NCBI GenBank assembly: GCA_031416315.1
Contig: JANOTL010000077.1
Span: 1-14,567, forward strand
Reading direction: 5' to 3'
DNA length: 14,567 nt
DNA from: Pseudomonadota bacterium
GTDB taxonomy: Bacteria; Bdellovibrionota_B; Oligoflexia; Oligoflexales; CAIYRB01
A program made the translations under genes and the position numbers. The notes beneath the pieces are model-generated. The model was given only the letters and a program-made list of their open reading frames with translations. It was not told where the DNA came from and searched no databases. Positions 1,946 through 14,567 of this stretch are shown piece after piece (position 1 is the stretch's first letter; each line of letters opens with the position of its first letter).

Positions 1946-2659
1946 ATGATCAGGACGATCACCATGCTGGCCCTTTCGTTGGCGTTCGCGGCGACGGGAG
2001 CGCAAGCCGGCAACGTCGCCAAGAGCGAGCGCGAGCTCGTCGTCGTCTCCGAGCTGGTCACACATTCGGCCCAGTACCGTTGGCTCTACCGCTTTATGGA
2101 GGCCAGCGGCGTCTCCCTTGCCTGGGAAACCCTGGGCAGCGAATACCGCACCGTCTACGCCCTCACCGGCGAGCGCGCGACCCTCGAGAACTTCAACCGC
2201 GGCCTCGGTCGCCTCGCCGAGAACGGCGAGGTCAAGGCCCTGGACGTTTTCCTGCACCTCCACGGCGGCCCAAAAACCCTGTATTTCCGCGAAGGCGGCT
2301 ACGCCACCGAAGACATCGCGCGCCGGCTCACGGAAAGCTCGCTCCTTCCGTCCAAGCTCCGCCTCGCCTATTCGACCGCCTGCTACGGCGCCTCGCACGC
2401 CGGAGACCTCCTCGCCGGCGGCTTCGAAGCGGTTTCGGGATCCCGCAGAGTCAATACTAACGGTGCTTACGACTACCCTGCGGTCTTGACCTCCTGGCGC
2501 GCCGGAGAGACGATCGCGGTCGCTCAAGATTGGGGTAACGTCGAGTTTTTCCGCAGGCTGTCGGACGACATCGCCTCCACCATGGGCTTCGGGGACGTCG
2601 ACAGCTACAAGGACGTCTTCGGTGCCAGCGAGCTGACGATCGGCTCGTCGAACCGCTGA
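1946..2659 (+). CDS. Secreted hypothetical protein, putative clan CD (caspase-hemoglobinase fold) cysteine peptidase
   Basis: AGGAG RBS at 1936-1940. Sec signal peptide ending AQA|G at about residue 21. ATLENFNRGL helix, strand-His-Gly (LDVFLHLHG, H106) and strand-Ala-Cys (LRLAYSTACYG, C146). The CDS is well supported; the function is inferred. Confidence 0.8.
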   Translation: MIRTITMLALSLAFAATGAQAGNVAKSERELVVVSELVTHSAQYRWLYRFMEASGVSLAWETLGSEYRTVYALTGERATLENFNRGLGRLAENGEVKALDVFLHLHGGPKTLYFREGGYATEDIARRLTESSLLPSKLRLAYSTACYGASHAGDLLAGGFEAVSGSRRVNTNGAYDYPAVLTSWRAGETIAVAQDWGNVEFFRRLSDDIASTMGFGDVDSYKDVFGASELTIGSSNR

Positions 2660-2666
2660 GGTTTCC

Positions 2667-3182
2667 GTGAACGTCAAATACCGCATCATCCAGTATCTCG
2701 CCGTCATCATCCCTTCTGTCCTGTTCGCGTATTTCTACGAGCCGCAGCGCAAGGAGATCGAAGGCACCTTCATCGCACCCGGGCGCAACGTACCCTCGAC
2801 GAAGCCGGTCGAGACCGCTGGCGGCGGCAACGCCCTCGACGAGATCAGCGACGCGCCGGCGGAGGGCGAGCCGCTCGCCGGCACCGAGCTCGAAAAGATC
2901 GTTCCGGACGCCGAGACGCAGGCGGGCCTCGCATACGTCGAGTCGCTCCGTCAGATCCCCGACGCCGCGCCTTTGATCGACGACATCGTCGAGTACATGA
3001 AGGAAGACGACGGCGCCGAGTTCTCGCTCGACCAGCTGGACTACGACGAGAACGGCCTCGCCGTGATCGACGCGAACACCAACAAGAAAATGATCAAAGA
3101 CCCCGAAATCCTCGCGAAATGGCAGAAGCTGATGCAGCTGATCGCCGCGAATCAGGCGCAGAAGAAGGCGGACAAGCTCTAG
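2667..3182 (+). CDS. Hypothetical acidic protein with a single N-terminal transmembrane anchor
   Basis: GTG start 7 bp after the upstream stop, with GAGG at 2658-2661. Hydrophobic segment IIQYLAVIIPSVLFAYFY, a Pro/Gly/Glu-rich linker and an acidic helical C-terminus. Codon usage is typical of the window. 171 aa. Confidence 0.8.
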   Translation: MNVKYRIIQYLAVIIPSVLFAYFYEPQRKEIEGTFIAPGRNVPSTKPVETAGGGNALDEISDAPAEGEPLAGTELEKIVPDAETQAGLAYVESLRQIPDAAPLIDDIVEYMKEDDGAEFSLDQLDYDENGLAVIDANTNKKMIKDPEILAKWQKLMQLIAANQAQKKADKL

Positions 3183-6100
3183 CCCTCCGCCAACATCGCC
3201 GCAAAGTGCCCCCCGCTTCGCCCCATCAAGACCTCGGGCGCATCAAACTCCACGACGCGCCCTTGCTCCATCACCATGATCCGGTCCGAGTCCATCACCG
3301 TCCCGAGCCGGTGCGCGATCGTGATCACCGTCGCGTCGCGGAATTCCTCGCGGATCGTCCGCTGGATCCACGCGTCCGTCGTCACGTCCACGCTCGCCGT
3401 CGCCTCGTCCAGCAGCAAGACCTTTGCGTCCTTCAGCAGCGCCCGTGCCAAGCAGAGGAGCTGCTTCTGCCCGACGGAGAAGTTTGACCCGCCCTCGTGC
3501 ACGTTCGTATCGAGCCCCTTCGGTAGCCTTTGTACCGACTCCTTCAAGGCCGCCCGCGCGAGCGCGTCCCAAAGGCGCGCCTCGTCGTGCACCGCGAACG
3601 GATCGAGGTTCTTGCGGATCGTGCCGCTGAATAGCGTCGGCTCCTGCGGAATGATCGCCAGCCGCGACCGCAAGGCCGCCAAGTCCAAGCCGGCGACGTC
3701 GACCCCGTCGATCGAGATCCGGCCCGCCTCGGGCTCCAGAATCCTGAACAAAGACAGTAATAAAGTACTCTTGCCGGCGCCCGTCCGCCCGACGATCCCC
3801 ACCTTTTCCCCAGCCCGGATCGTGCAGTCCAACTCGCGCGCGACCGGCGGCAGATCCGGTCGGTAGCGCAGGGTTACCTTGTCGAACCGAACCTCGCCCG
3901 CCGACGGCCAGCCCTCCGGCGGCCGCGCCCCGGCCCAGCGCTCCGACGGCAAGCGCGTGTAGTGCTCTATTCGCTCGACCGAGTTCAAATTGCTTTCGAC
4001 CTGGCTCACCATCCGGACGGCCCAGTTCATCGCGCCGGTGATCGCCAGCGCGTACGTCACCGACAGCCCCACGAAGCCCGCGCCCAGAGAGCTGGTCGTC
4101 GCCACCGAGGCGATCGCCGCCGCCGCCACGACGCCGGCGCCGAGCGTCTCGATCCGGGTCCCGAGCCAGCGGTTCGCCGACACCAAGGTGTAGAACGTCC
4201 GGCTGTTCGTCTCGAGGGCGCCGAGCAAGGAGCGCTCGAAGCGCCGCTCCGCGCCGAACGCGCGGATCACCGCCACGCCGGCGAGCGTCTCCGAGAACTG
4301 CGCGAACACCGGCGAGCGCGTGATCGAATCGAGCCTTTGCCCTTCGCGCGAGGCCGGCCGAAACGTCTTCTGCACCTGCCAATAAATGAATCCGATCGGG
4401 ACGATCGCGAAGAGCGCCGCCGGCGTCACCAACACCACCACGACCAGGGTCGAGACGATCGTGAAGATGCAGCCCAGAGCGTCGAGCAAAGACCTCGGAA
4501 TCTGCTGGTCCACTGCCTCCATGTCTCGCGCGAAGCGGTTCAGAACCCGACCGACCGGCGTCCCCTCGAAGAACCCCATCGGCGCCGCGAGCACGCTCTT
4601 CAACAAGCCGTTGTGAAAGATCGTCCCGGCCGTCAGGCCGCGCAAGGTGATGATCAAGCTGCGGATGAAGGTCGACGTGCACGCCGCGATCCCGAACGCC
4701 AGATAGCCGAGGAGAAACCAGTGCGCCTGGAAATCCTTGGCCGTCGACCAATAAGCCAGCCACGAGTCCGTGCCGACCCCGAGCAGCTCCTTCGTCAGGA
4801 ACGCCACGGACAAGCCCGCCGCGATCGCCCCCGGCGCAAAGGTCTTGAAGTAGAGCTTGTAGACGCCCCAGCCCACGACGCCCGTATTGCGCTCTTCTTC
4901 CGTCATGATCCGCGTCGCCGGCTTGCCCAACTCGCCGCGCGCCGGGCTCACGCGCTCCGCCGCCGGCACGTCCGCTTCGGCCTCCGCCGCAAGCATCTCC
5001 TCCTCGGTCGCCTCGGCGTTGCCCTCGGCGCGCTCGTAGGCTCGCCAAAGCTGGAAAAAGTACTTGGACTTACGCTTTAACTCGCGCGGGCGGCCGCTTT
5101 CGACGACCACGCCGCCGTCGAGCACGATCAAACGATCGGCGCGGTCGACGAACTCGAGACGATGCGTCGCGAGAATCCGCGTCTTGCCCTTCAGCGCGCC
5201 GAGAATCGCGTCGTCGTACACCGCATGCGCCACCTGCGCATCGAGCGCGCTCAGGGGGTCGTCGAGCAGATACACGTCGGCGTCGGCGTAAATCGCTCGT
5301 GCCAGGCTGATCCTCTGCCGCTGCCCGCCTGACAGGTTGACGCCGCGCTCGCCGATCTCCGTCGCGTCCCCGCCGGGAAAATGCGCCAGATCCGCGAGCA
5401 TGGAGCTCACCGCCAGAGCCCGCTCATAGCGCGCTTCATCGAGCTCGAGCCCAAACAAGACGTTGGCGCGGATCGTGTCGTTGAGAATCCAGGCCTGCTG
5501 CGAGACGAAGGCGACGCTCCCTGCCACGTCAGCCGTCCCGGCCACGAGCTCCAGATCGCCGAGCAAGGACGCGATCAACGCGCTCTTCCCACTTCCGACC
5601 GCTCCGACCACGACCACGAGCTCCCCACGTCGAACCTCGAGATCCAAGCCGCTGAGCGCACGCGCCGTCTTCGTCCAGGAAAACGCTGCACCTTTCAGCG
5701 AGATGGTGCCCGCCGGCAAACTCGACGGAGCCCGCTTCGCCAGCTCCGGCAGGGCGAGAAACTCCTCGACGCGTTTGATCGAGACGTTGGCGTCCATACA
5801 CAGCGTCAACATGTCGGGCAGCATCACCATCGCCTGCCGCAACACCGTGAACAGCGCTAGTGACGCGAACACGTCTGCTGCGTTCAAAGCGTGCCCCGAA
5901 AGCACATACGTCGCGAACGTCGCTACTGCGACGACGACCGGCGAGCTGAAGAACAAGAGCTGCCCGAGCGAGCCTAGCTTCGCGAGCTTGCGCAGCTCGA
6001 CGACCTCTCGTCCTCGGATCTGCTGCGCTTCGGCCTCGAAGCTGCGCTCCCAAGCATAGAACTTCAGCACGCGAATGCTCATCAGGATCTCGTTCATCAG

Positions 6101-6862
6101 GCCGACGCGCTCGTCCGAATGCTTCACGAGCTCCTTCCGCGCCACGAGCCCCTTCCGCGCAACGACGGATGCGAGGTACAGAAACATCAACAAAATGGCC
6201 GCGCCCGCGAGCGAGGCCGGCCCCAGGATCCAATACAAAATCGCCATGACCAAAGTGAGCTGCATCGGATGGAGCCACAACGAGTGGAAGACGTTCAGCA
6301 TGTTGACGAACTTCTGCGCGTCGGTCCCCATCAAGTTGATGATGCGCCCCGCGGGGGCCCGCTGCCGCGATTCGATCGTCAGAGCCAGGGACTTTCGGTA
6401 GATCGCGGTCACGAGCCCGATGCGCACGCGCACCATCAGGCGCAGGTTGCGGTGAAAGATGTGATGCGCCGTCATGCTCGTCGCCAAGGCGCTGACGAAG
6501 AGCGACACCGCGAGCGTCAGCGCCAAGGCTCCGCCCCCGCCGCCTAGCTCATGAACCAGCTCGCGCAAGAGCAAGGGACTCGCCACGGACGCCACGAGAT
6601 GGAACATCGAAATGCCGAAAACTCCGGCGAGCGCCCGCTTGTGGATCTCCCACATGCTGCGCAGAACGGGGCGACGCCGAGCCGCATTGACGACGAGCTC
6701 ATCTTTGAACGCCGTCTCGCAGCGCTGGGGATCCTCCTCTTCGTGCAACGGCAAGAGATCGGCGATCGTCAGCGGATGCTCGACGCCTGCGTCCAAGGTC
6801 GGCCGAACCCAACGGAAGTAGAGCCTCGAGAAGAGTCCGGCAGATTGTTCGGGGGAGCGCAT
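3179..6862 (-). CDS. Single-chain ABCC/MRP-like ABC exporter (TMD1-NBD1-TMD2-NBD2)
   Basis: NBD1 has GAVGSGKS, LSGGQ and a degenerate Walker B (VYLLDDPLSA). NBD2 has GRTGAGKS, FSVGQ, LLLDEATAS and IAHRL. Two multi-helix transmembrane domains. N-terminal lasso-like segment PEQSAGLFSRLYFRWVRPTL. The start is ATG 6862 (1227 aa) or TTG 6880. Confidence 0.93.
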   Translation of the reverse strand: MRSPEQSAGLFSRLYFRWVRPTLDAGVEHPLTIADLLPLHEEEDPQRCETAFKDELVVNAARRRPVLRSMWEIHKRALAGVFGISMFHLVASVASPLLLRELVHELGGGGGALALTLAVSLFVSALATSMTAHHIFHRNLRLMVRVRIGLVTAIYRKSLALTIESRQRAPAGRIINLMGTDAQKFVNMLNVFHSLWLHPMQLTLVMAILYWILGPASLAGAAILLMFLYLASVVARKGLVARKELVKHSDERVGLMNEILMSIRVLKFYAWERSFEAEAQQIRGREVVELRKLAKLGSLGQLLFFSSPVVVAVATFATYVLSGHALNAADVFASLALFTVLRQAMVMLPDMLTLCMDANVSIKRVEEFLALPELAKRAPSSLPAGTISLKGAAFSWTKTARALSGLDLEVRRGELVVVVGAVGSGKSALIASLLGDLELVAGTADVAGSVAFVSQQAWILNDTIRANVLFGLELDEARYERALAVSSMLADLAHFPGGDATEIGERGVNLSGGQRQRISLARAIYADADVYLLDDPLSALDAQVAHAVYDDAILGALKGKTRILATHRLEFVDRADRLIVLDGGVVVESGRPRELKRKSKYFFQLWRAYERAEGNAEATEEEMLAAEAEADVPAAERVSPARGELGKPATRIMTEEERNTGVVGWGVYKLYFKTFAPGAIAAGLSVAFLTKELLGVGTDSWLAYWSTAKDFQAHWFLLGYLAFGIAACTSTFIRSLIITLRGLTAGTIFHNGLLKSVLAAPMGFFEGTPVGRVLNRFARDMEAVDQQIPRSLLDALGCIFTIVSTLVVVVLVTPAALFAIVPIGFIYWQVQKTFRPASREGQRLDSITRSPVFAQFSETLAGVAVIRAFGAERRFERSLLGALETNSRTFYTLVSANRWLGTRIETLGAGVVAAAAIASVATTSSLGAGFVGLSVTYALAITGAMNWAVRMVSQVESNLNSVERIEHYTRLPSERWAGARPPEGWPSAGEVRFDKVTLRYRPDLPPVARELDCTIRAGEKVGIVGRTGAGKSTLLLSLFRILEPEAGRISIDGVDVAGLDLAALRSRLAIIPQEPTLFSGTIRKNLDPFAVHDEARLWDALARAALKESVQRLPKGLDTNVHEGGSNFSVGQKQLLCLARALLKDAKVLLLDEATASVDVTTDAWIQRTIREEFRDATVITIAHRLGTVMDSDRIMVMEQGRVVEFDAPEVLMGRSGGHFAAMLAEG

Positions 6863-6873
6863 TCGTCTACAAT
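6845..6873 (+). promoter_or_regulatory. Putative sigma70-type promoter for the S8 protease gene
   Basis: TTGTTC (6845-6850), a 17-bp spacer, then TACAAT (6868-6873), 33 bp upstream of the GTG start. It overlaps the start of the divergent ABC gene. Confidence 0.5.
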
Positions 6874-6906
6874 CCAGCAAATTGGTCCACTTCTCCAGGA
6901 GTTCCC

Positions 6907-8334
6907 GTGACGCTCACCGTCCTCAGCACCGCCGCCGCGCTCACTTTCACGGCACTCGGGCAGAAGCAGCCGATTTCTCTCGTAGACTCGGCGGAGAAAT
7001 CCACGGCCCTCGCCGACGGGTCCGGGCTCGCCGGGATACGCATTCGCTTCGCGAGTGGCGCGAGCGCGACGTTGACGAATCGTATCGTGATCGGCGTCGA
7101 TGCGCCCGTAGCCCTCGCATTTTTGCGGGACCAGCCAGGATTCATCAGCTCGAGGCCGCTGCCGTTCCACGAGGCGGTGGTCACGGCGACGTTCACGAGG
7201 CCGCTCGCGGCGCTGGCGGCGGCAAACGCGCTCGTCGGGCAGGAAGGCGTGCGCTACGCGCATCCGGATTTCAAGTTGGAGGTCGAGCCACGCTCCGCAC
7301 ACGCCACTTCGCCCGTCGACGAGCCGCTCTATGCCGCGCAATGGCACCTTCCCCGTGTCGGCGTCGACACCGCCTGGACCGTCACGCGCGGCTCGCCCGA
7401 TCTCGTCATAGCCGTCCTGGATCTAGGCTTCGAGCAAGACCACCCCGATTTGCGCGACGCCTGGCTGGTCAATCCCGGAGAAATCCCGGGCAACCGCCTC
7501 GACGACGACGGCAACGGCCTGAAGGACGACGTGCGCGGCTGGAATTTCGCGACCAACGGCAGCAACCTCATCTATGGCGCCGCGCCGGGTCACGGCACCG
7601 CCACCGCAGGCATTGTCGGCGCGCGCGCCAACGGCGCTGGCGTTGTCGGCCTCTGTCCCGACTGCCGTGTGTTGCCGGTCGTCCTCGACGACTATCCCTC
7701 CAATGCCGCCGCGGCGTTCGGCTATGTGCAGAGCTTCGGCGCCGCCGTCGTCTCCAACAGCTGGGGCTACAAGATCGGCACGCCGGCGACCGACGTCGTC
7801 GTCGAGGCGATCGAGAGGCTCGCACGCGAAGGCCGAAACGGCAAAGGCACCACCATTGTCTTCGCGATGTCGAACGCCGCCGTGGACAATTGCCGGTGGC
7901 CGGAGCCCGACATCTCCGCGCTCGACCTCGTCGTCGCCGTCAGCTCGGTCGACCAGGACGAGCGCAAGGTCCCGGAATCCGGCTACGGCGCCTGCCTCGA
8001 CCTCGTCGCGCCGTCGTCGCCGTCACAGGACCGCGGCGTCGTCACCGTCGACCGTCCCGGCATCAAGGGCTACAACACCGGCGCGCGCTCTAGCGACCTC
8101 GAAGATCTCGACTACACAAACACCTTTTACGGCACCTCCGCCGCCGCCCCCCAAGTTGCCGGCGCATTCGCGCTTCTGTATGCGGCGCGCCCAGGCCTCA
8201 CCCGCGCCGAGGCCTACACGCTGATGGTCGCGCACGCGGAGAAAGTGGAAGTGGGGACAGCCGCTTACGACGCAAACGGCTTCAGCCGCACGCACGGCTA
8301 CGGACGCATCGACCTTTCGTTCCTAGTCGAATAG
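6907..8334 (+). CDS. S8 (subtilisin/kexin-like) serine peptidase, probably secreted
   Basis: AGGAG RBS at 6897-6901 and GTG start. Catalytic triad IAVLDLG (D172), HGTATAG (H229) and GTSAAAP (S411). Also SNSWG, a DDDGNGLKDDVRGWNF Ca-binding-type insert and a C-terminal HGYGRID. It has a hydrophobic N-terminus and a prodomain of about 130 aa. Confidence 0.92.
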   Translation: MTLTVLSTAAALTFTALGQKQPISLVDSAEKSTALADGSGLAGIRIRFASGASATLTNRIVIGVDAPVALAFLRDQPGFISSRPLPFHEAVVTATFTRPLAALAAANALVGQEGVRYAHPDFKLEVEPRSAHATSPVDEPLYAAQWHLPRVGVDTAWTVTRGSPDLVIAVLDLGFEQDHPDLRDAWLVNPGEIPGNRLDDDGNGLKDDVRGWNFATNGSNLIYGAAPGHGTATAGIVGARANGAGVVGLCPDCRVLPVVLDDYPSNAAAAFGYVQSFGAAVVSNSWGYKIGTPATDVVVEAIERLAREGRNGKGTTIVFAMSNAAVDNCRWPEPDISALDLVVAVSSVDQDERKVPESGYGACLDLVAPSSPSQDRGVVTVDRPGIKGYNTGARSSDLEDLDYTNTFYGTSAAAPQVAGAFALLYAARPGLTRAEAYTLMVAHAEKVEVGTAAYDANGFSRTHGYGRIDLSFLVE

Positions 8335-8434: not shown

Positions 8435-11400
8435 TCAGTGCGCAGGAGCCGGCGCCACCGGCTTCGCCACCTTCACCGGCACACTCGCCATGACCGAGTT
8501 CGTCTCGGTCCGGATCACGAGGTCGCCGGTCGCGGAGAACTTGCCGCTCAAGAAGAGCTCGTGCTGCAAGATCTTCGACGCTTCCTGGTCGAAGGCGAAG
8601 CCGATCTTGTATGCCTGGCCGCCGAGGTCCTCGACCGTAATCGCACCCTTCTCCGCAGTCTTCAGCGTGCGCTTGTCGCCCAAAACGAAGGCCGTGCCCG
8701 TCGGCATCGCGTAGCCGACGGCGAGCGCCGCGTAGAATTTGCCGGCGACCGGCTGGAACTCCACCTTCTCGACGTCCGTCGCGCCAGCGCTTTGGCCCGC
8801 GAGACCGCAGTCCGTCAGCGCTTCGTCGGCGCACTCGAGAACGGCGAGGTCGATGTCGTTGCCCGTGGAGCCGCCGGTCGAGATCGCGACCGTGGCCACG
8901 TCGTCGCCGTAGGTGCGGGCCACTTTGCCGTCCGCATCCGGAACCAGCTGCTGCTCGTCCTGCTCGAGCTTGCCCACGAGCTCCTGCAGCAGGCTGTCCA
9001 AAGTCAGCGTCGTCTTCGTCGCCGACGGCGTCGCCGCGAAGGAAGCCTCGAGCACTTTGAAGTCGATCGCGCCGTCGAGGGCCTCGGGGCCGCCCGTGAT
9101 GGCCGCGACCGAAGCTTGGACCTTCGCGTACTCGACCGAGATCTTGTACGCCGAGTGGGCGAACTGGTAGCGGCCGAACACGTGGAGGTTCCAGATGCCC
9201 GGATTCGGATTGGCGCGGGCGTAGGTCACTTTGCGCGTCTCGGGCGAGGCGTTGCCGAAGTCGTCACAATTCTTGGCGATCGAGGCGCTGCCCGCGATTT
9301 CGGCCGGAGTCAGCGTGTTGCCGGCTTCGTAGGCATAAAGACGGACGCCTTGGCAGCCCGTGATCGCGCTGCCATTGACGTCGGCAGCCGGCACTTCGAG
9401 GGTGACCGTGACGAGGCTTACGCCCGCCGGGACGTCGACGTAGTGGCGCGCGAGGCCGAAGGCTTCCACGCCGCCGTCGGTCGAGAATCCAGCCGAGCCC
9501 ACGAGCGTCTTGTTCGGCACCGTGACGTAGACCGGCACGATGAGGGCCGCGTTGGCCTCGACCTTATCGCCCGACTTGCGATGCAGCGAGATCAGCGCGC
9601 CGTGGTCACCCGCAGGCAAGGTCGCCATGAGCTCACGGTTGACGCAAACGTAGAGGGTCGATTCGCGATGCGGGATCGAGCGGCCGGCGCCCGGGGCGTC
9701 GAACGCATCGGTGGCGCCTTCGCCGATGACGATGAGATCGGCCTTCGGGGCCTTGGCGCAGTCGAGCTGGTTCATCGAGCCTGCGCCGACCCAGCGCACC
9801 TTCGAGCCGTAGACCGAGGTCTTGACGACAAACTCGTCTTTCGTGTCCTTCAGGAGTCGCTGCAGGTCGCCGAGGTCACCGCGCGCCGCGGCGCTGTACG
9901 GGAGACGACGGGCGATTTGGACCGGGATCAGGCTCTCGGTTTGCTTGGCGTCGAGCCAGATGCCGCGGCCGAAGCGAGGACCGGTAACCTCGTAGATTTC
10001 CGGCGGCAGCTCGAGCGAGCCGTCGTATTTGATGTTGTTCGGGCCAGTCCGGAGAACGCGGACCTGGTAGTCGAGGGCGATGTCCTTCTTCACGCCGTTT
10101 TCGAGGGCGTAGACGGCGCTGGGGAGCTTGGTGTCACGCTCGGCTTTCAGGGCGGCCCAAGCGCGCGGCAGGTTGACCATGCCGGTGCCTTGATCAACCC
10201 AAGTATACTGGCCGCGCTGGAAATCGCCCGTGTCGAGGTCGAACTTGGTGACGTCGAACGGCTTCGCCGAGGCGATGATGACCTTACGCAGGGTCAGCGC
10301 GTCGAGCGGCAGCGCTTTGTCCGGGTTCTGCGTGTTGTAGAGCTTGGCCGCGTCGAGAAGGAGCGCGATCGCGCCGGCAGCCGAGGGCGCCGCCATGGAG
10401 GTGCCCCAGTAGACTTCGAGGCCGGCGCGGGTGCCGGGCGCGGTGTTCAACTGGACGGCGGAGAGCTCGGTGCCCGGAGCGGTGATGTTCGGCTTGAAGC
10501 CGCCCGCCGCGTTCGGGCCGCGGGAGGAGAAGAAGAGCATGAAGTCGTCATTCTTGGACGCGTGCTCGCTCGAAAGCTTGCCCGTGCCCGGCCACTGGTA
10601 CTGGCGCTCAAGCATGGTGCGGGACGCCGTGGCGCCAACCGAAAGCGCGTGACGGGCGTTGCCCGGCGAGCCGATCGTGTTGAGGCCCGGGCCCGAGTTG
10701 CCGGCGGAGATGACGAACAGGGTGTTGTTCATCTCGGTCAGGCGGTCGATGACGATCTCGTCGACGCCGTAGCCGTCGTTGTACGGCGACAGGCCGCCGA
10801 GCGACATGTTGACGATCTCGGCGCCGGCTTCCGACATGTCGATGATGGCTTCCGAGTACTCGCAGCCGCCGTTGTTGGCGCAGACGCGGTTCATCATCAG
10901 CTGCGCGTTCGGCGCGACGCCGCGCGCGAGCGTGTCGTCGCTGTCGTTGGCGATCGTCTTGCGGCCGCCGACGATGCCGGCGACGTGCGAGCCGTGGTTG
11001 CCCGGATCGAAGCCGACGATGGAGGCCGACACGACGTCGATCTCTTCGCCCGCGGCGTTCGCCAGCTTCTGGCCTTGAATGTGGAAGCCGAACTGCTCCG
11101 CGCTCAGCTTGATCAAGCCGTGCGTCGTGTTGAAGTCGCCGATGGCGGAGACGCCGCGGAAGTCGACGCCGCCTTGGGCCGCGAAGTAGAGCTTGTAGGC
11201 GCCCTCGCCCGCGGGGGCGATGATGGCGAGGAGGGAGTCGTCGACCTTGCCGTTCTGGTTCAAGTCGACGAACTCGGGATCGGCGGAGAAAGAGGTCTCC
11301 GACAGGATGCCGAGCTTGGCGCCGTTGCCGGCGGTGGTGAGGAGCGCTTTCAGCTCGTCCGACGCGCGGATCGGCGTCGCGATGGCGCGAAGGTTGTCGG

Positions 11401-12397
11401 CGACGGGGACCGCAGCGGCGCCTTTTACGGGCGGCAGCACCTCGGCGTCGATCAGGAGGACGTCGGCCGGGAAGCCGGCGTCGGCCGCGGGCACCGTGAC
11501 CTCGAACTTCGCCGCCGGGTTGAAGTAGATCCGGCCTTCGGCCGTGAAGTCCTTCATGTAGGCGATACGGGTGTTGCCGTCTTTGTCGGTGAACGAGGGA
11601 TGGTTATACGTGATGCCGGTGTCGGTGACGCCGACTTTGACGCGCGAGCCGTCCGGGACCGCGGTGCCGAGGTCGGCTTTGACCGCTTCGAGGAACTGCG
11701 GCACTTCCATGCGGGTCAAGCCGCTGAAGCCGTCGAGGTTGCCGCGGCCGTCGGCGAGCAGCTGGTCGACCAGGCTCGAGTCCATCTTGCGGACCGAGCG
11801 CTCGTCGATCGGGTTGACGACGACCGGGGCGAGCACGACCGAGGTCGGCAGGCCGCGGACGTTAGCGAGCTGGCTGTAGGAGGAAAGCTTCATCTTCGCG
11901 AGGAAGAAGCCGTACTTCGGGTAGCTGCGGATGGCCTCGAGGCCGCCGACTTGCTTACTCAAGGCTTCGATCGTGGAGGCGAGCGGCGCGGCCAGCTCGG
12001 TGGCCAGCTCGGCGTCGGTGCGCGAGACCGAGCGAGCGGTCGCGAGCAGGCGCTTGAAGCCCGTTTCCTCTAGGACCGCTTGAACGGTGATGTACTGCTC
12101 GCCGCGGATCGTCGAGACGTTGACGAAGTCGCCGGCCGGCAGCTTGATGCGCGGGCCGTCGGCCGTGTCGGTCGGGGTCGGCAGGCTGCCGGCCGCGATG
12201 ACCACTTGGCCTTGATTCACCGGCGTTTCGGTCGTGAGACCGCCGCCATTGGTGCCTGTGGCCGGAGCCTCGGTCGCGGTCGTCGGCTTTTTCGCCGCGG
12301 CCCCGCCGTCCCCTTTACGCGCACAACCCGACCCGACCAGGGCAAGGGCTGCCGCAAGTCCAACGCTATAGCCGACGGAAGACGGACGTAGTCTCAT
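8435..12397 (-). CDS. Large S8 serine peptidase lipoprotein, TPPII/pyrolysin-like, with C-terminal PPC-like domains
   Basis: GAGGAG RBS. Signal peptide with lipobox-like LVGSG|C25. Catalytic VGVTDTG (D259), HGSHVAG (H468) and GTSMAAP (S667), plus SAGNSGPGLNTIGSPG and FSSRGP. Two PPC-like beta segments (HYVDVPAG...NPNPGIWNLHV and NDIDLAVLE...EKVEF...GKFYA). 1320 aa. Confidence 0.93.
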   Translation of the reverse strand: MRLRPSSVGYSVGLAAALALVGSGCARKGDGGAAAKKPTTATEAPATGTNGGGLTTETPVNQGQVVIAAGSLPTPTDTADGPRIKLPAGDFVNVSTIRGEQYITVQAVLEETGFKRLLATARSVSRTDAELATELAAPLASTIEALSKQVGGLEAIRSYPKYGFFLAKMKLSSYSQLANVRGLPTSVVLAPVVVNPIDERSVRKMDSSLVDQLLADGRGNLDGFSGLTRMEVPQFLEAVKADLGTAVPDGSRVKVGVTDTGITYNHPSFTDKDGNTRIAYMKDFTAEGRIYFNPAAKFEVTVPAADAGFPADVLLIDAEVLPPVKGAAAVPVADNLRAIATPIRASDELKALLTTAGNGAKLGILSETSFSADPEFVDLNQNGKVDDSLLAIIAPAGEGAYKLYFAAQGGVDFRGVSAIGDFNTTHGLIKLSAEQFGFHIQGQKLANAAGEEIDVVSASIVGFDPGNHGSHVAGIVGGRKTIANDSDDTLARGVAPNAQLMMNRVCANNGGCEYSEAIIDMSEAGAEIVNMSLGGLSPYNDGYGVDEIVIDRLTEMNNTLFVISAGNSGPGLNTIGSPGNARHALSVGATASRTMLERQYQWPGTGKLSSEHASKNDDFMLFFSSRGPNAAGGFKPNITAPGTELSAVQLNTAPGTRAGLEVYWGTSMAAPSAAGAIALLLDAAKLYNTQNPDKALPLDALTLRKVIIASAKPFDVTKFDLDTGDFQRGQYTWVDQGTGMVNLPRAWAALKAERDTKLPSAVYALENGVKKDIALDYQVRVLRTGPNNIKYDGSLELPPEIYEVTGPRFGRGIWLDAKQTESLIPVQIARRLPYSAAARGDLGDLQRLLKDTKDEFVVKTSVYGSKVRWVGAGSMNQLDCAKAPKADLIVIGEGATDAFDAPGAGRSIPHRESTLYVCVNRELMATLPAGDHGALISLHRKSGDKVEANAALIVPVYVTVPNKTLVGSAGFSTDGGVEAFGLARHYVDVPAGVSLVTVTLEVPAADVNGSAITGCQGVRLYAYEAGNTLTPAEIAGSASIAKNCDDFGNASPETRKVTYARANPNPGIWNLHVFGRYQFAHSAYKISVEYAKVQASVAAITGGPEALDGAIDFKVLEASFAATPSATKTTLTLDSLLQELVGKLEQDEQQLVPDADGKVARTYGDDVATVAISTGGSTGNDIDLAVLECADEALTDCGLAGQSAGATDVEKVEFQPVAGKFYAALAVGYAMPTGTAFVLGDKRTLKTAEKGAITVEDLGGQAYKIGFAFDQEASKILQHELFLSGKFSATGDLVIRTETNSVMASVPVKVAKPVAPAPAH

Positions 12398-12646: not shown

Positions 12647-13459
12647 TTAATCGCCAGTGGATCCAGTCGCGCCGGTCGAGCCGGTGGATCCCGTCGAGCC
12701 GGTGGATCCCGTCGAGCCCGTGGATCCGGTCGCGCCTTCCGAGCCAGATCCGGATTCGTCTTCGCCCGCGTCAGACCCTTCCGAGCCCGTGCCTTCGGAT
12801 CCAGACGAGGCCTCGCCGGAGCCGGAGCCTTCTGCAGCACCCTTGGCAGGGCTGAGGTAGATGTACATCTCGTTCTTGGAGCCGTCCTTCAGGATCTTCT
12901 TCTTCTCCGTCGGGGCGATGTAGCTCGCCTCGAGCTTGAAGGCGACGACGTCCTCGCCGTCCTGGTATTCGCCCGTGACCTTCACGAGGCCGCCCTTTTC
13001 AGGACCGGAGGCGATGAAGTAGATCGGTTTGGAAAAGCCGAGGGTCGCGATCTTCTGCGTAAGCTCGATGGTCTCTTTGTCTTCGACTTTACTCAGCAGC
13101 TTCTGCTGAGCTTCGTCGTAGCCCTTCACTTCCTCTTCGAGGAGCTTGAGCTTCACGCCCTTCTTGCCCTCGATCTTGAAGGTCCAGATGATGCAGGGCT
13201 TGGTGTCGTCTTTCTTATGGTCGTCGCTCTGGAGGACGAGGGCGACGGCGGCCCAGCCGGCCTTCATCTTCGACTCTTTCGCCATGTTCTTAAACGTGGA
13301 GTCGGGCTTCTTCTCTTTGCCGGCGTCCGTCGGGCAGGCGGGGCCTACGCTCGAGCCGATGTCCTTGAGAATCGCCGGCGCGCCGGTGTCTCCGCAGGCC
13401 GCGACATAGGTCGCAAGCAAGGTCGTCGTCGCAACGGCAGTGAGGCGAATCGCTCGCAT
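12647..13459 (-). CDS. Hypothetical lipoprotein with a Lys-rich core and a low-complexity G/S/E/T C-terminal tail
   Basis: ATG 13459 has a GGGAGA RBS, preferred over ATG 13498. Signal peptide II MRAIRLTAVATTTLLATYVAA|C22. Two further Cys residues could form a disulfide. 270 aa. Confidence 0.85.
   Translation of the reverse strand: MRAIRLTAVATTTLLATYVAACGDTGAPAILKDIGSSVGPACPTDAGKEKKPDSTFKNMAKESKMKAGWAAVALVLQSDDHKKDDTKPCIIWTFKIEGKKGVKLKLLEEEVKGYDEAQQKLLSKVEDKETIELTQKIATLGFSKPIYFIASGPEKGGLVKVTGEYQDGEDVVAFKLEASYIAPTEKKKILKDGSKNEMYIYLSPAKGAAEGSGSGEASSGSEGTGSEGSDAGEDESGSGSEGATGSTGSTGSTGSTGSTGSTGATGSTGD
12656..12736 (-). repeat. Coding tandem repeat of nine 9-bp units, (G-X-T)9, with a higher-order 18-bp period
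   Basis: The plus-strand unit GTCGAGCCGGTGGATCCC is repeated about three times within the array. It encodes GAT-(GST)6-GAT-GST just before the C-terminal GD. Confidence 0.9.
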
Positions 13460-13580
13460 GAGCAGTCTCCCAAAACGGAACGAAGAAGCAGAAGCCATCT
13501 AGGTTCCTCTTCGGGCGGTCTGGGCGATAGCTTAAAGGATGCGAAACATCACTTTAAATACAAGGGATTGCCCGAAAGAA

Positions 13581-14567
13581 TCAGGCCAGCGTGCGGCCGT
13601 AGTTCGCAGTGTGGGTCCCGGGGAGGGGAGCCCGGCGGCGGGCGGCGTCGAGGACCGAGAAGACGCGCTCGGGCGCATACTCTCGGGTCAGGAAATCGAG
13701 GCGAAAGTCGCGGATGCCGAGCGCCACGAGCTCGGTTTGCGCCGCGGTGATCGCGTAGGCTTCCTCGCCGTAAACGATCGACTTGCAGGACTCGTGCGCG
13801 ACGTAGAAGCGCTCGCCCTTGGGGTTCTCGATGGTCAAGGAGCGGTAGCCGCACACCTTCGCCGTCGGGCAGCCGTCATGCAGCGCGGTGAGCGAGCATG
13901 CTTCGGCGATGAAAAGCGGCGTGTCCTTGAAGAGGATGACGCGGGTCGCGGCGACTTCCTCCAAGGTAAGGCGTGCGAGATGCTCGGTGAGGTTGGCGCG
14001 GTCGTCTTCCACGGACAGGCAGACGGTGCCGACGCCCCGCTCGCGCCAGAATCGGTGCGTCTCCGAGTTCAGCGCGTAGAGCGTGAAGTCGGCGGCGACG
14101 TCGGTGGCCTCGATGCCCCAATCCTTGAGGAGGAGGAGCGCGCCGACGTTGCCAACCTCGAAACGGGTGACGCCGCGAGCGTGCGCGACCTGGAGCCAGC
14201 GCTTCAAGAGCGGCTCGTCCCAGGCGCGGAGGACGGTGGGGATGGCGAGGCGGAGGGGAATGTCGAGGGACGTGAGCTCGGCGGATAGGGCCTCGGGATC
14301 GATGGAGGGGAGGAAAGCGCGTTTCGGCTCGAAAATGAGCTCGGAAAGGGTGAAGTCGGGGTGTGCCGCCGCGTAGGCGAGGACCGTACGCGCCGTCTCC
14401 AAGCGATCGGTCTTCACGCAATAAGAAACCCCTCCGCTACTCCGCCCCACAGTCCCGCCGTAGCGGGGGGGCCGGGGGGGGGCGGCCGAGGGCGGGGCGA
14501 GGGGGGGGGGTGGGGGATGTAGGGGCGGCGGGGCTCCGGGGGCGCCGCCGACGGGGGGGGGGGGGCG
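13581..14567 (-). CDS. C-terminal part of a U32-family protein (long YdcP/RlhA-like), 5'-partial
   Basis: Motifs FEVGNVG, ADFTLYALN, VCLSVED, ILFKDTPLFIAEAC, GCP...CG, CKSIVYG and GIRDFRLDF resemble the C-terminal region of long U32 proteins. The frame has no stop up to the window edge, but the sequence beyond about 14430 looks unreliable. Confidence 0.7.
   Translation of the reverse strand, partial: RPPPPVGGAPGAPPPLHPPPPPLAPPSAAPPRPPRYGGTVGRSSGGVSYCVKTDRLETARTVLAYAAAHPDFTLSELIFEPKRAFLPSIDPEALSAELTSLDIPLRLAIPTVLRAWDEPLLKRWLQVAHARGVTRFEVGNVGALLLLKDWGIEATDVAADFTLYALNSETHRFWRERGVGTVCLSVEDDRANLTEHLARLTLEEVAATRVILFKDTPLFIAEACSLTALHDGCPTAKVCGYRSLTIENPKGERFYVAHESCKSIVYGEEAYAITAAQTELVALGIRDFRLDFLTREYAPERVFSVLDAARRRAPLPGTHTANYGRTLA
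14430..14567. other. G-rich low-complexity tail, probably low-quality contig-end sequence
   Basis: Progressive drift into G runs of up to 13 nt at the very end of the window, where a coding frame is expected and normal codon structure is lost. Confidence 0.75.

Follow-up and report, generated by a model that had tools for sequence, protein, structure and literature searches.

Does an ABCC-type exporter encoded in a bacterial genome derive from eukaryotes, or did eukaryotes obtain the family from bacteria? The ABCC family, which includes the cancer drug pumps MRP1–5, the cystic fibrosis channel CFTR and the sulfonylurea receptors, is usually treated as eukaryotic. The question is raised by one gene (positions 3179–6862, minus strand) in a 14,567-nt stretch of DNA, here called the window, which is the whole of contig C77 (GC 0.651) of the bacterial genome G000. 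An initial annotation made from the sequence alone had described the product as a four-domain ABCC-type full transporter encoded in a bacterial locus, and this held for domains, MRP matches, structure and codon use: the protein is a native, intact single-chain ABCC/MRP-type exporter. Taken as a whole, the gene probably encodes an exporter of amphipathic anions or peptides whose clade is the bacterial sister of the eukaryotic ABCCs. The evidence leans slightly towards the whole ABCC family having been assembled stepwise in Bdellovibrionota-like bacteria and handed ready-made to a stem eukaryote.

Identity and Domain Organization

The gene was found to be one open frame of 1227 amino acids, with an ATG at 6862 and a TAG ending at 3179. 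An in-frame TTG at 6880, preceded by a purine run resembling a ribosome-binding site, is a possible alternative start adding six residues. Two ABC_membrane and two ABC_tran domains were detected in the single chain, in the order transmembrane domain (TMD), nucleotide-binding domain (NBD), TMD, NBD. The top NCBIfam model was TIGR00957 (MRP) with 1027 bits, more than twice the score of any bacterial exporter model (403 bits for MsbA). The protein is not a long MRP of the MRP1 kind described by TIGR00957: TMD0 is absent, and the score lies under the cut-off of 1470 bits. The top PDB sequences were plant ABCC2 (935 bits), MRP1 (905), MRP4 (810) and CFTR (541), further matches included MRP2/3, Ycf1, MRP5 and SUR, and identity to eukaryotic ABCC/MRP proteins was 33–39%. 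An AlphaFold2 model of residues 1–1187 had a predicted local distance difference test score (pLDDT) of 89 and a predicted template modeling score (pTM) of 0.85; in a fold search with this model the top 50 matches were all ABCCs, with a template modeling score (TM-score), relative to the query, of up to 0.90.

All features given below lie on the minus strand. A lasso (L0)-like N-terminus without TMD0 was found at residues 4–39 (6746–6853). The region aligned with plant ABCC2 from residue 227 and MRP1 from residue 208, the match spanning residues 4–48 and reaching the N-termini of MRP4 and CFTR, and was modeled as helical with pLDDT 83–94; the lasso motif is a feature of the ABCC/MRP family (PMC10886794, here and below cited for the part of its text that was accessible). 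TMD1 (approximately residues 65–369; 5756–6670), as matched and modeled, consists of six long helices. NBD1 (approximately residues 387–612; 5027–5704) has a canonical signature, a Walker B DD at 534–535 in which D535 replaces the catalytic E, and an H-loop H567 followed by a bacterial-type R568. Its stretch from Walker A to the Q-loop (5498–5587) counts 29 residues vs. 42 in ordinary exporters, which corresponds to the loss of 13 NBD1 residues that the accessible text of PMC10305233 describes for MRP1.

The two halves are joined by a linker predicted to be disordered (residues 612–653; 4904–5029; residues 615–653 of low confidence in the model). Its acidic nature, noted in the initial annotation, was borne out by 11 D/E vs. 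4 K/R over 44 residues. The linker is where two ancestral half-genes would have fused, as suggested by bacterial gene pairs that are split there (type D, see below). It is followed by a pre-TMD2 motif (residues 655–671; 4850–4900), and the second gene of split pairs opens with a similar motif. In TMD2 (approximately residues 678–969; 3956–4831), aligned to MRP1, R898, N946, W947 and R950 correspond to bovine MRP1 R1196, N1244, W1245 and R1248 (residue list from PMC10886794). NBD2 (approximately residues 991–1220; 3203–3892) was identified by domain match and motifs, and contains the catalytic E1153, H1184 and an altered signature at 1128.

The lasso, the pre-TMD2 motif, the Walker B DD, the altered NBD2 signature and the other motifs on which the initial annotation relied (residues 771, 846 and 897 for the latter) were thus all found where it had placed them. 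Its use of NBD asymmetry as a eukaryotic hallmark did not hold, as the D at the catalytic position was present in 16 of 16 first halves of ordinary bacterial heterodimers, and a V in the signature in 6 of 16 second halves. Because the asymmetry is common to these heterodimers, diagnostic value lies in the lasso, the 13-residue deletion and the TMD sequence. Membership of the structural family is nevertheless consistent across the one-chain four-domain order, the lasso, the asymmetry, the deletion and the grouping with ABCCs in trees. The term 'MRP4/Yor1-like' fits the build, which lacks TMD0, but the sequence is nearer to plant ABCC2 and MRP1. By descent the term does not apply: in trees the protein was placed outside all sampled eukaryotic subfamilies and apart from both the ABCC4 row P0365 and the fungal row P0306, which we take to be Yor1-like.

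Residence in the Host Genome

Genome G000 comprises 6.36 Mb in 226 contigs (93% complete, 3.17% contamination, GC 0.649). Its class is taken to be Oligoflexia, and its order is probably Oligoflexales. The gene showed a GC content at third codon positions of 0.866 (59th percentile) and a score similar to the codon adaptation index in the 25th percentile, relative to 2694 filtered open reading frames (ORFs) of its own genome; this agrees with the host-like codon use noticed initially, and introns are absent. Across 11 loci of the same type (type A, see below), gene GC followed flank GC from 0.28 to 0.65. G000 was shown to contain three full-length copies, the window gene included; the other two, of type B (C175:13995–17762 and C138:176312–180007), are 35–37% identical to the window protein. 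An orthologue from the same genus showed 67% identity and has a different upstream neighbor. The transporter gene is native to its host. The fragmented assembly and its contamination value could point to a eukaryotic contig or a chimera binned into a bacterial genome. Such an artefact is extremely improbable: the neighbors are of bacterial type, GC and codon use match the genome, the same-genus orthologue exists and relatives are encoded in single-contig genomes, so that contamination was ruled out by orthologues in complete bacterial chromosomes as well. Carriage on a mobile element was also considered and rejected. No match at E ≤ 1e-80 was found among 72,556 plasmid records, and a search of a phage collection gave four partial matches, none reaching 80% coverage.

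Distribution and Bacterial Types

The survey of taxa proposed with the initial annotation was carried out as genome-wide searches of seven phyla. Matches were found in 14 of 41 relatives of the host and in three Bdellovibrionota-like phyla: in 39 of 104 genomes of the host phylum, in 44 of 301 of the phylum of a Bdellovibrio record, and in 27 of 110 of a third phylum labeled Bdellovibrionota, from which 12 loci fell in type A. The matching genomes include single-contig ones, and some relatives are named Bdellovibrio bacteriovorus. Automatic JGI labels on some relatives read 'subfamily C (CFTR/MRP)'. Outside these phyla, type B was found in 2 of 101 genomes of another phylum, and a laxer cut-off with query P0001 gave one match in 301 genomes of another 'delta'-type phylum, a two-gene pair grouping with the outgroup. 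Sporadic type A members were found in Nostoc/Roholtiella and in Sorangium (2 of 10 clusters looked up), and the Sorangium members (P0358 cluster) have an altered NBD2 signature; a cyanobacterial query matched none of 251 cyanobacterial genomes. At family level, type A was present in 2 of 12 genomes searched, G000 included. In a metagenome scan 3 of 80 loci were ABCC-like, the remainder being ordinary half-transporter matches. Type B genes were also seen in records labeled Hyphomicrobiales, Polynucleobacter and Pseudomonadota (L023, L026, L032), bin labels that may misstate lineage.

The bacterial proteins were divided into five types, all of which co-occur in the class Oligoflexia. Type A (33 rows, including the window protein) has the full lasso and the exact 13-residue deletion. 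Type B (63 rows, among them both G000 paralogues and B. bacteriovorus-named proteins) is fused, with a truncated lasso and a partial NBD1 deletion; in type B′ (three rows, Silvanigrellaceae family), also fused, the deletion is exact. Type D (eight loci, L210–L217, Silvanigrellaceae family) is a gene pair divided at the linker; its second gene begins with the pre-TMD2 motif. Type C, widespread in Bdellovibrionota, consists of two paired genes; its TMD motifs are ABCC-like and its NBD1 loop is full. It was detected in 50 of 301 genomes at E ≤ 1e-100 and in 27 of 104 at E ≤ 1e-80, but not in G000 when searched there. ABCCs were the best PDB matches of the type C second half (283 bits, one stretch); the ranking of the first half was inflated by two-domain sums and was not used. 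An ESM Atlas search with a type C half gave generic ABC clusters only. A profile built from first halves of types C, D, A and B (15 rows, nine of type C) detected no type C in 151 + 151 genomes of two other 'delta'-type phyla, the best scores being 313 and 318 bits vs. 532–820; the best pairs from these phyla were complete in 14 of 15 cases, and all 14 complete ones grouped with ordinary heterodimers.

Some types showed recurring neighbors. Type A is syntenic in the Silvanigrellaceae family (L020, L095–L104), with methyltransferase and glycosyltransferase genes upstream and a small membrane protein and a UbiA-family prenyltransferase on the downstream side. Type D, which also has an extended NBD1 loop, lies adjacent to a phosphoglycerate dehydrogenase gene in seven of eight loci, and type C loci (L030:5704–9202; L180–L199; L218–L227) often adjoin genes for an MgtE transporter, a flavin amine oxidoreductase and a 2OG-Fe(II) oxygenase.

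Sequence Characters and Phylogeny

The spacing from Walker A to the Q-loop was 42 in all 16 outgroup rows and in 20 of 30 type C rows, several of which retain a recognizable canonical NBD1 segment; it was 51–56 in type D, 36–37 in 47 of 63 type B rows, and 29 in 30 of 33 type A, 3 of 3 B′ and 115 of 142 eukaryote rows. A W three residues past the Q-loop is common to A (31/33), B′ and the eukaryotes. The residues corresponding to R of transmembrane helix (TM) 16 and W/R of TM17 in MRP1 are present in D, B, A and the eukaryotes and absent from C and the outgroup. Two other characters set type A against the eukaryotes: the R after the NBD1 H-loop (16/16 outgroup, 63/63 B and 29/33 A vs. 4/142 eukaryote rows) and the equivalent of MRP1 K332 (0/33 A vs. 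97/142 eukaryote rows).

Trees were rooted on 16 ordinary heterodimer pairs (O), and the 142 eukaryote rows (E) were the top matches to the window protein plus MRP4. The rows that carry names are from animals, land plants, a streptophyte alga, fungi, amoebozoa, an apusozoan and a stramenopile; additional sampling via a short NBD2 region returned almost only MRP4, and those rows were not added. Proteins outside 1050–1750 amino acids were excluded, and more than ten long or duplicated ones that were checked revealed no identifiable new subfamily. FastTree analysis of 295 rows gave O,(C,(D,(B,(B′,(A,E))))) from the N-terminal half, the C-terminal half and both alike. IQ-TREE with the posterior mean site frequency (PMSF) model LG+C20+G4 on 43 rows (a 63-row set minus 20) and 1109 columns gave O,(C,(D,(B,((A,B′),E)))), with support (Shimodaira–Hasegawa-like approximate likelihood ratio test/approximate Bayes) of 98.1/1 for the eukaryotes, 99.9/1 for A+B′+E, 99/1 on adding B and 96.3/1 on adding D. 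This ladder was regained by a free search started on a rival tree with rival-derived site frequencies, and again after Dayhoff-6 recoding.

In the approximately unbiased (AU) test five alternatives were rejected, both with ladder-derived (p 0.0004–0.009) and with rival-tree-derived site frequencies (p 0.0001–0.031). These included all Bdellovibrionota types as a single clade (p 0.0007 and 0.031), all fused bacterial types as a single clade (p 0.0004 and 0.002), and A+B′ joined to three eukaryote groups (p 0.0001–0.009); roots on two eukaryote branches were rejected as well (p 0.011 and 0.006). On these 43 rows the window protein thus falls outside the eukaryotic radiation, the eukaryote rows being monophyletic and the nested placements rejected. 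As the initial annotation had expected of a tree, the protein grouped with ABCCs and apart from ordinary bacterial exporters. Of its two proposed origins, the bacterial sister lineage informative about ABCC origins agrees with the nesting of eukaryotic ABCCs in a grade of Bdellovibrionota-type genes, and the eukaryote-to-bacterium direction is disfavored.

Origin of the Family

In the stepwise reading, an ordinary heterodimeric exporter would have become specialized in Bdellovibrionota-like bacteria while still encoded by two genes with a full NBD1 loop (type C). The anion-binding residues and a partial lasso would then have been gained in a two-gene state (type D), the pair fused (type B), and 13 NBD1 residues lost (types A and B′). 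One fused gene would have passed to the stem eukaryote and given rise to the MRPs, Ycf1/Yor1 and plant ABCCs, and likewise, by established family membership, to CFTR and SUR. Every intermediate would then survive in living Oligoflexia, and the type A clade would be the closest prokaryotic relative of MRP1 and CFTR.

Several observations weigh against this sequence of events. Independent shortening of the same loop in NBD1 was seen in six of 30 type C rows (spacing 28), which shows that the indel is not unique and can arise repeatedly. With type C as the sole outgroup (B, B′ and D removed), roots inside the eukaryotes were 3.0–3.6 log-likelihood units better, none of three trees was rejected, and support on the eukaryote side was 15.7/0.53, compared with 29/0.68 for the ordinary pairs alone. 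Type D alone gave eukaryotes at 100/1 and a root inside A, and the ordinary pairs alone a root between A and E; the result therefore hinges on intermediate types that interrupt the long branch. A ladder with progressively longer branches is a recognized form of long-branch artefact, and composition was out of line in the test for 34 of 63 rows. The IQ-TREE search was stopped slightly past ten iterations and made without ultrafast bootstrap, the constrained trees were fast searches, and B′ shifted between methods from sister of A to sister of A+E. No ABCC5/10/11/12, SUR, CFTR or excavate row was identified among the 142 mostly nameless eukaryote rows. Gene neighborhoods are not conserved across families, and no shared operon names a substrate. 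Among PDB sequences every ABCC subfamily, including ABCC5/10, SUR and CFTR, scored 1.3–1.4 times higher with type A than with type B, a ratio that fits the tree placement but does not prove it.

The rejection of the reverse direction on the 43-row set, with both sets of site frequencies, has to be read together with its loss when type C is the only outgroup. In that direction type A, and perhaps B′, would come from an early or unsampled eukaryote, or all types from a captured ABCC with the ladder produced by long-branch attraction. The complete eukaryotic lasso, the exact deletion and the W after the Q-loop of type A would agree with this, as would its patchy occurrence at family level and its movement between phyla (Nostoc and Sorangium clusters). 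However, type C keeps the ancestral NBD1 segment and the two-gene layout, both of which a eukaryote-derived gene would have to regain, and type A retains the bacterial-type R that follows the H-loop, lacks the K332 equivalent and is diverse across two phyla. We regard this direction as unlikely. Another way to account for the same tree is that the bacterium-to-eukaryote direction is right and the donor was another, unsampled or extinct lineage, the Bdellovibrionota-like bacteria only preserving the intermediates. The sporadic type A members in cyanobacteria and Sorangium, the type B genes in another phylum and the scope of the searches (two of 64 parts in the named GTDB scan, besides the seven phyla) leave some room for such a donor, which is nevertheless considered quite improbable: the five rungs co-occur in one class, type C was missing from both further 'delta'-type phyla, and the single 'delta'-type match and the cyanobacterial query yielded an outgroup pair and nothing, respectively.

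If assembly in Bdellovibrionota-like bacteria is correct, living bacterial intermediates would name the donor lineage for one gene family that predates the eukaryotes' last common ancestor (LECA), a point relevant to the still open matter of what 'delta'-type bacteria contributed to eukaryotes. How the lasso, the fusion and the NBD1 deletion arose could then be tested in cultured organisms, since type B is present in records named B. bacteriovorus and B and C occur together in genomes of the same phylum, and prokaryotic ABCC models would be available for structure and mechanism.

Predicted Function

Of the transport mechanism, the protein itself shows the domain order, the lasso, a degenerate and a consensus ATP site, and the R-N-W-R group of TM16/TM17. 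MRPs have one hydrolytic and one binding-only ATP site (PMC10886794). By homology, substrate would enter an inward-facing cavity, ATP would close the NBD dimer, and the pump would be reset when ATP is hydrolyzed at the NBD2 site (E1153); the hydrolytic site would be formed by the NBD2 Walker motifs and the NBD1 signature, and the binding-only site by NBD1 (D535) and the altered NBD2 signature.

Compared with the 14 pocket residues of MRP1 in a table of PMC10886794 (K332, H335, L381, F385, Y440, T550, W553, F594, M1092, R1196, Y1242, N1244, W1245 and R1248), five are identical in the window protein (F385, R1196, N1244, W1245 and R1248). H88 lies in the same alignment column as H335 and is a probable match, and the equivalents of K332, Y440, W553, F594, M1092 and Y1242 are S, V, F, Q, D and A. 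Because the TMD2 group and F385 are kept and other pocket residues lost, it appears reasonably likely that amphipathic anions or small metabolites resembling peptides are exported through the inner membrane. A glutathione-conjugate pump like MRP1/Ycf1 would agree with the conserved R1196/N1244/W1245/R1248 equivalents, the possible H335 match and a glutathione-synthetase-like gene in the genome (181 bits). This match is under its cut-off of 299, the six substituted positions include the K332 column, in which K is absent from 33 of 33 type A rows, and glutathione conjugates are the less likely, rather doubtful substrate; lipids or other compounds would take up the remainder. No membrane-fusion or outer-membrane factor genes of type I secretion or tripartite systems were found among the scanned window genes or recurring neighbor clusters, and delivery would therefore be to the periplasm. 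Gene context gives a single hint at function: in one locus (L267:3–8738) a cyanobacterial-type A gene lies directly behind genes for an O-methyltransferase, an unassigned product and two ATP-grasp ligases on the same strand, likely a small-peptide biosynthetic cluster; ORFs that by eye resemble CRISPR-associated genes come next.

Genes Surrounding the Exporter

The neighbors in the window encode a TetR regulator, a proline iminopeptidase (above cut-off) and two S8 peptidases. The transporter and S8 peptidase genes are divergent, with 26–44 bases between likely starts (6862–6907), so that promoters would fall inside coding regions; a promoter scan was uninformative, with no sigma-70-like sites and two terminator-like sites vs. 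4.1 expected. At its other end the transporter stop shares CTAG (3179–3182) with a convergent gene for 171 amino acids (2667–3182). The S8 peptidase at 8435–12397 (minus strand) is a lipoprotein-like protein of 1320 amino acids whose catalytic domain carries a large insert and whose C-terminal portion of approximately 600 residues is without assignment, and its codons are strongly host-adapted (92nd percentile). No Pfam or NCBIfam match was found for 1946–2659 (plus), 2667–3182 (plus), 12647–13498 (minus) and 13581–14567 (minus). Three of these four products have signal- or anchor-like N-termini, and that of 13581–14567 looks by eye like the C-terminus of a U32-family peptidase.

Comparison with Known Systems

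Eukaryotic short ABCC/MRP proteins (MRP4 in build; MRP1, Ycf1 and plant ABCC2 in the core; CFTR) share with the window protein the single chain, the lasso, the NBD1 deletion, a degenerate NBD1 and consensus NBD2 site, and the TM16/17 R-N-W-R residues. The window protein differs from eukaryotic ABCCs in its bacterial host, the lack of TMD0, a 44-residue linker, the R after the NBD1 H-loop and the missing K332 equivalent. Bacterial heterodimeric type IV exporters have the same order of halves (DD, then DE), the asymmetry and a related opening motif of the second half, but consist of two genes with a full NBD1 loop, without lasso or N-W-x-x-R, and show approximately 26–33% identity. The outgroup pairs are presumably of the MdlAB/SmdAB/BmrCD/TM287-288 kind, and SmdA/SmdB models matched the window protein in the NCBIfam scan. 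Closer to it are B. bacteriovorus proteins annotated as 'multidrug ABC transporter ATP-binding protein' (type B; P0182, P0203, P0208), which are fused and have the DD/DE asymmetry and the TM16/17 residues. They differ in the truncated lasso, the partial NBD1 loss and usually a Q in the NBD2 signature, and stand one rung further from eukaryotes. For these proteins there is database annotation, and no study was found in the literature searched.

No description of a bacterial full-length ABCC was found in that literature, which lay outside subscription papers, among them surveys of Bdellovibrio transporters. The accessible text and three supplement files of PMC12872458 contain no ABCC or KOG0054 entry, and the text of bioRxiv 10.64898/2026.05.08.723234 does not mention ABC proteins, although its supplements may bear on the question. 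According to the accessible text of Xiong et al. (2015; PMC4649718), prokaryotic half-transporter clades are basal to each ABCC half (with Igarashi et al., 2004, as cited there), the family is proposed to stem from heterofusion of two divergent halves with progenitors that were maybe bacterial, and the complete ABCC is placed 'in or before LECA', with no fused bacterial ABCC or donor named. New here are a type A member on the rung next to the eukaryotes and a five-step series with its character changes. Compared with the scheme of Xiong et al. (2015), fusion here appears to precede transfer.

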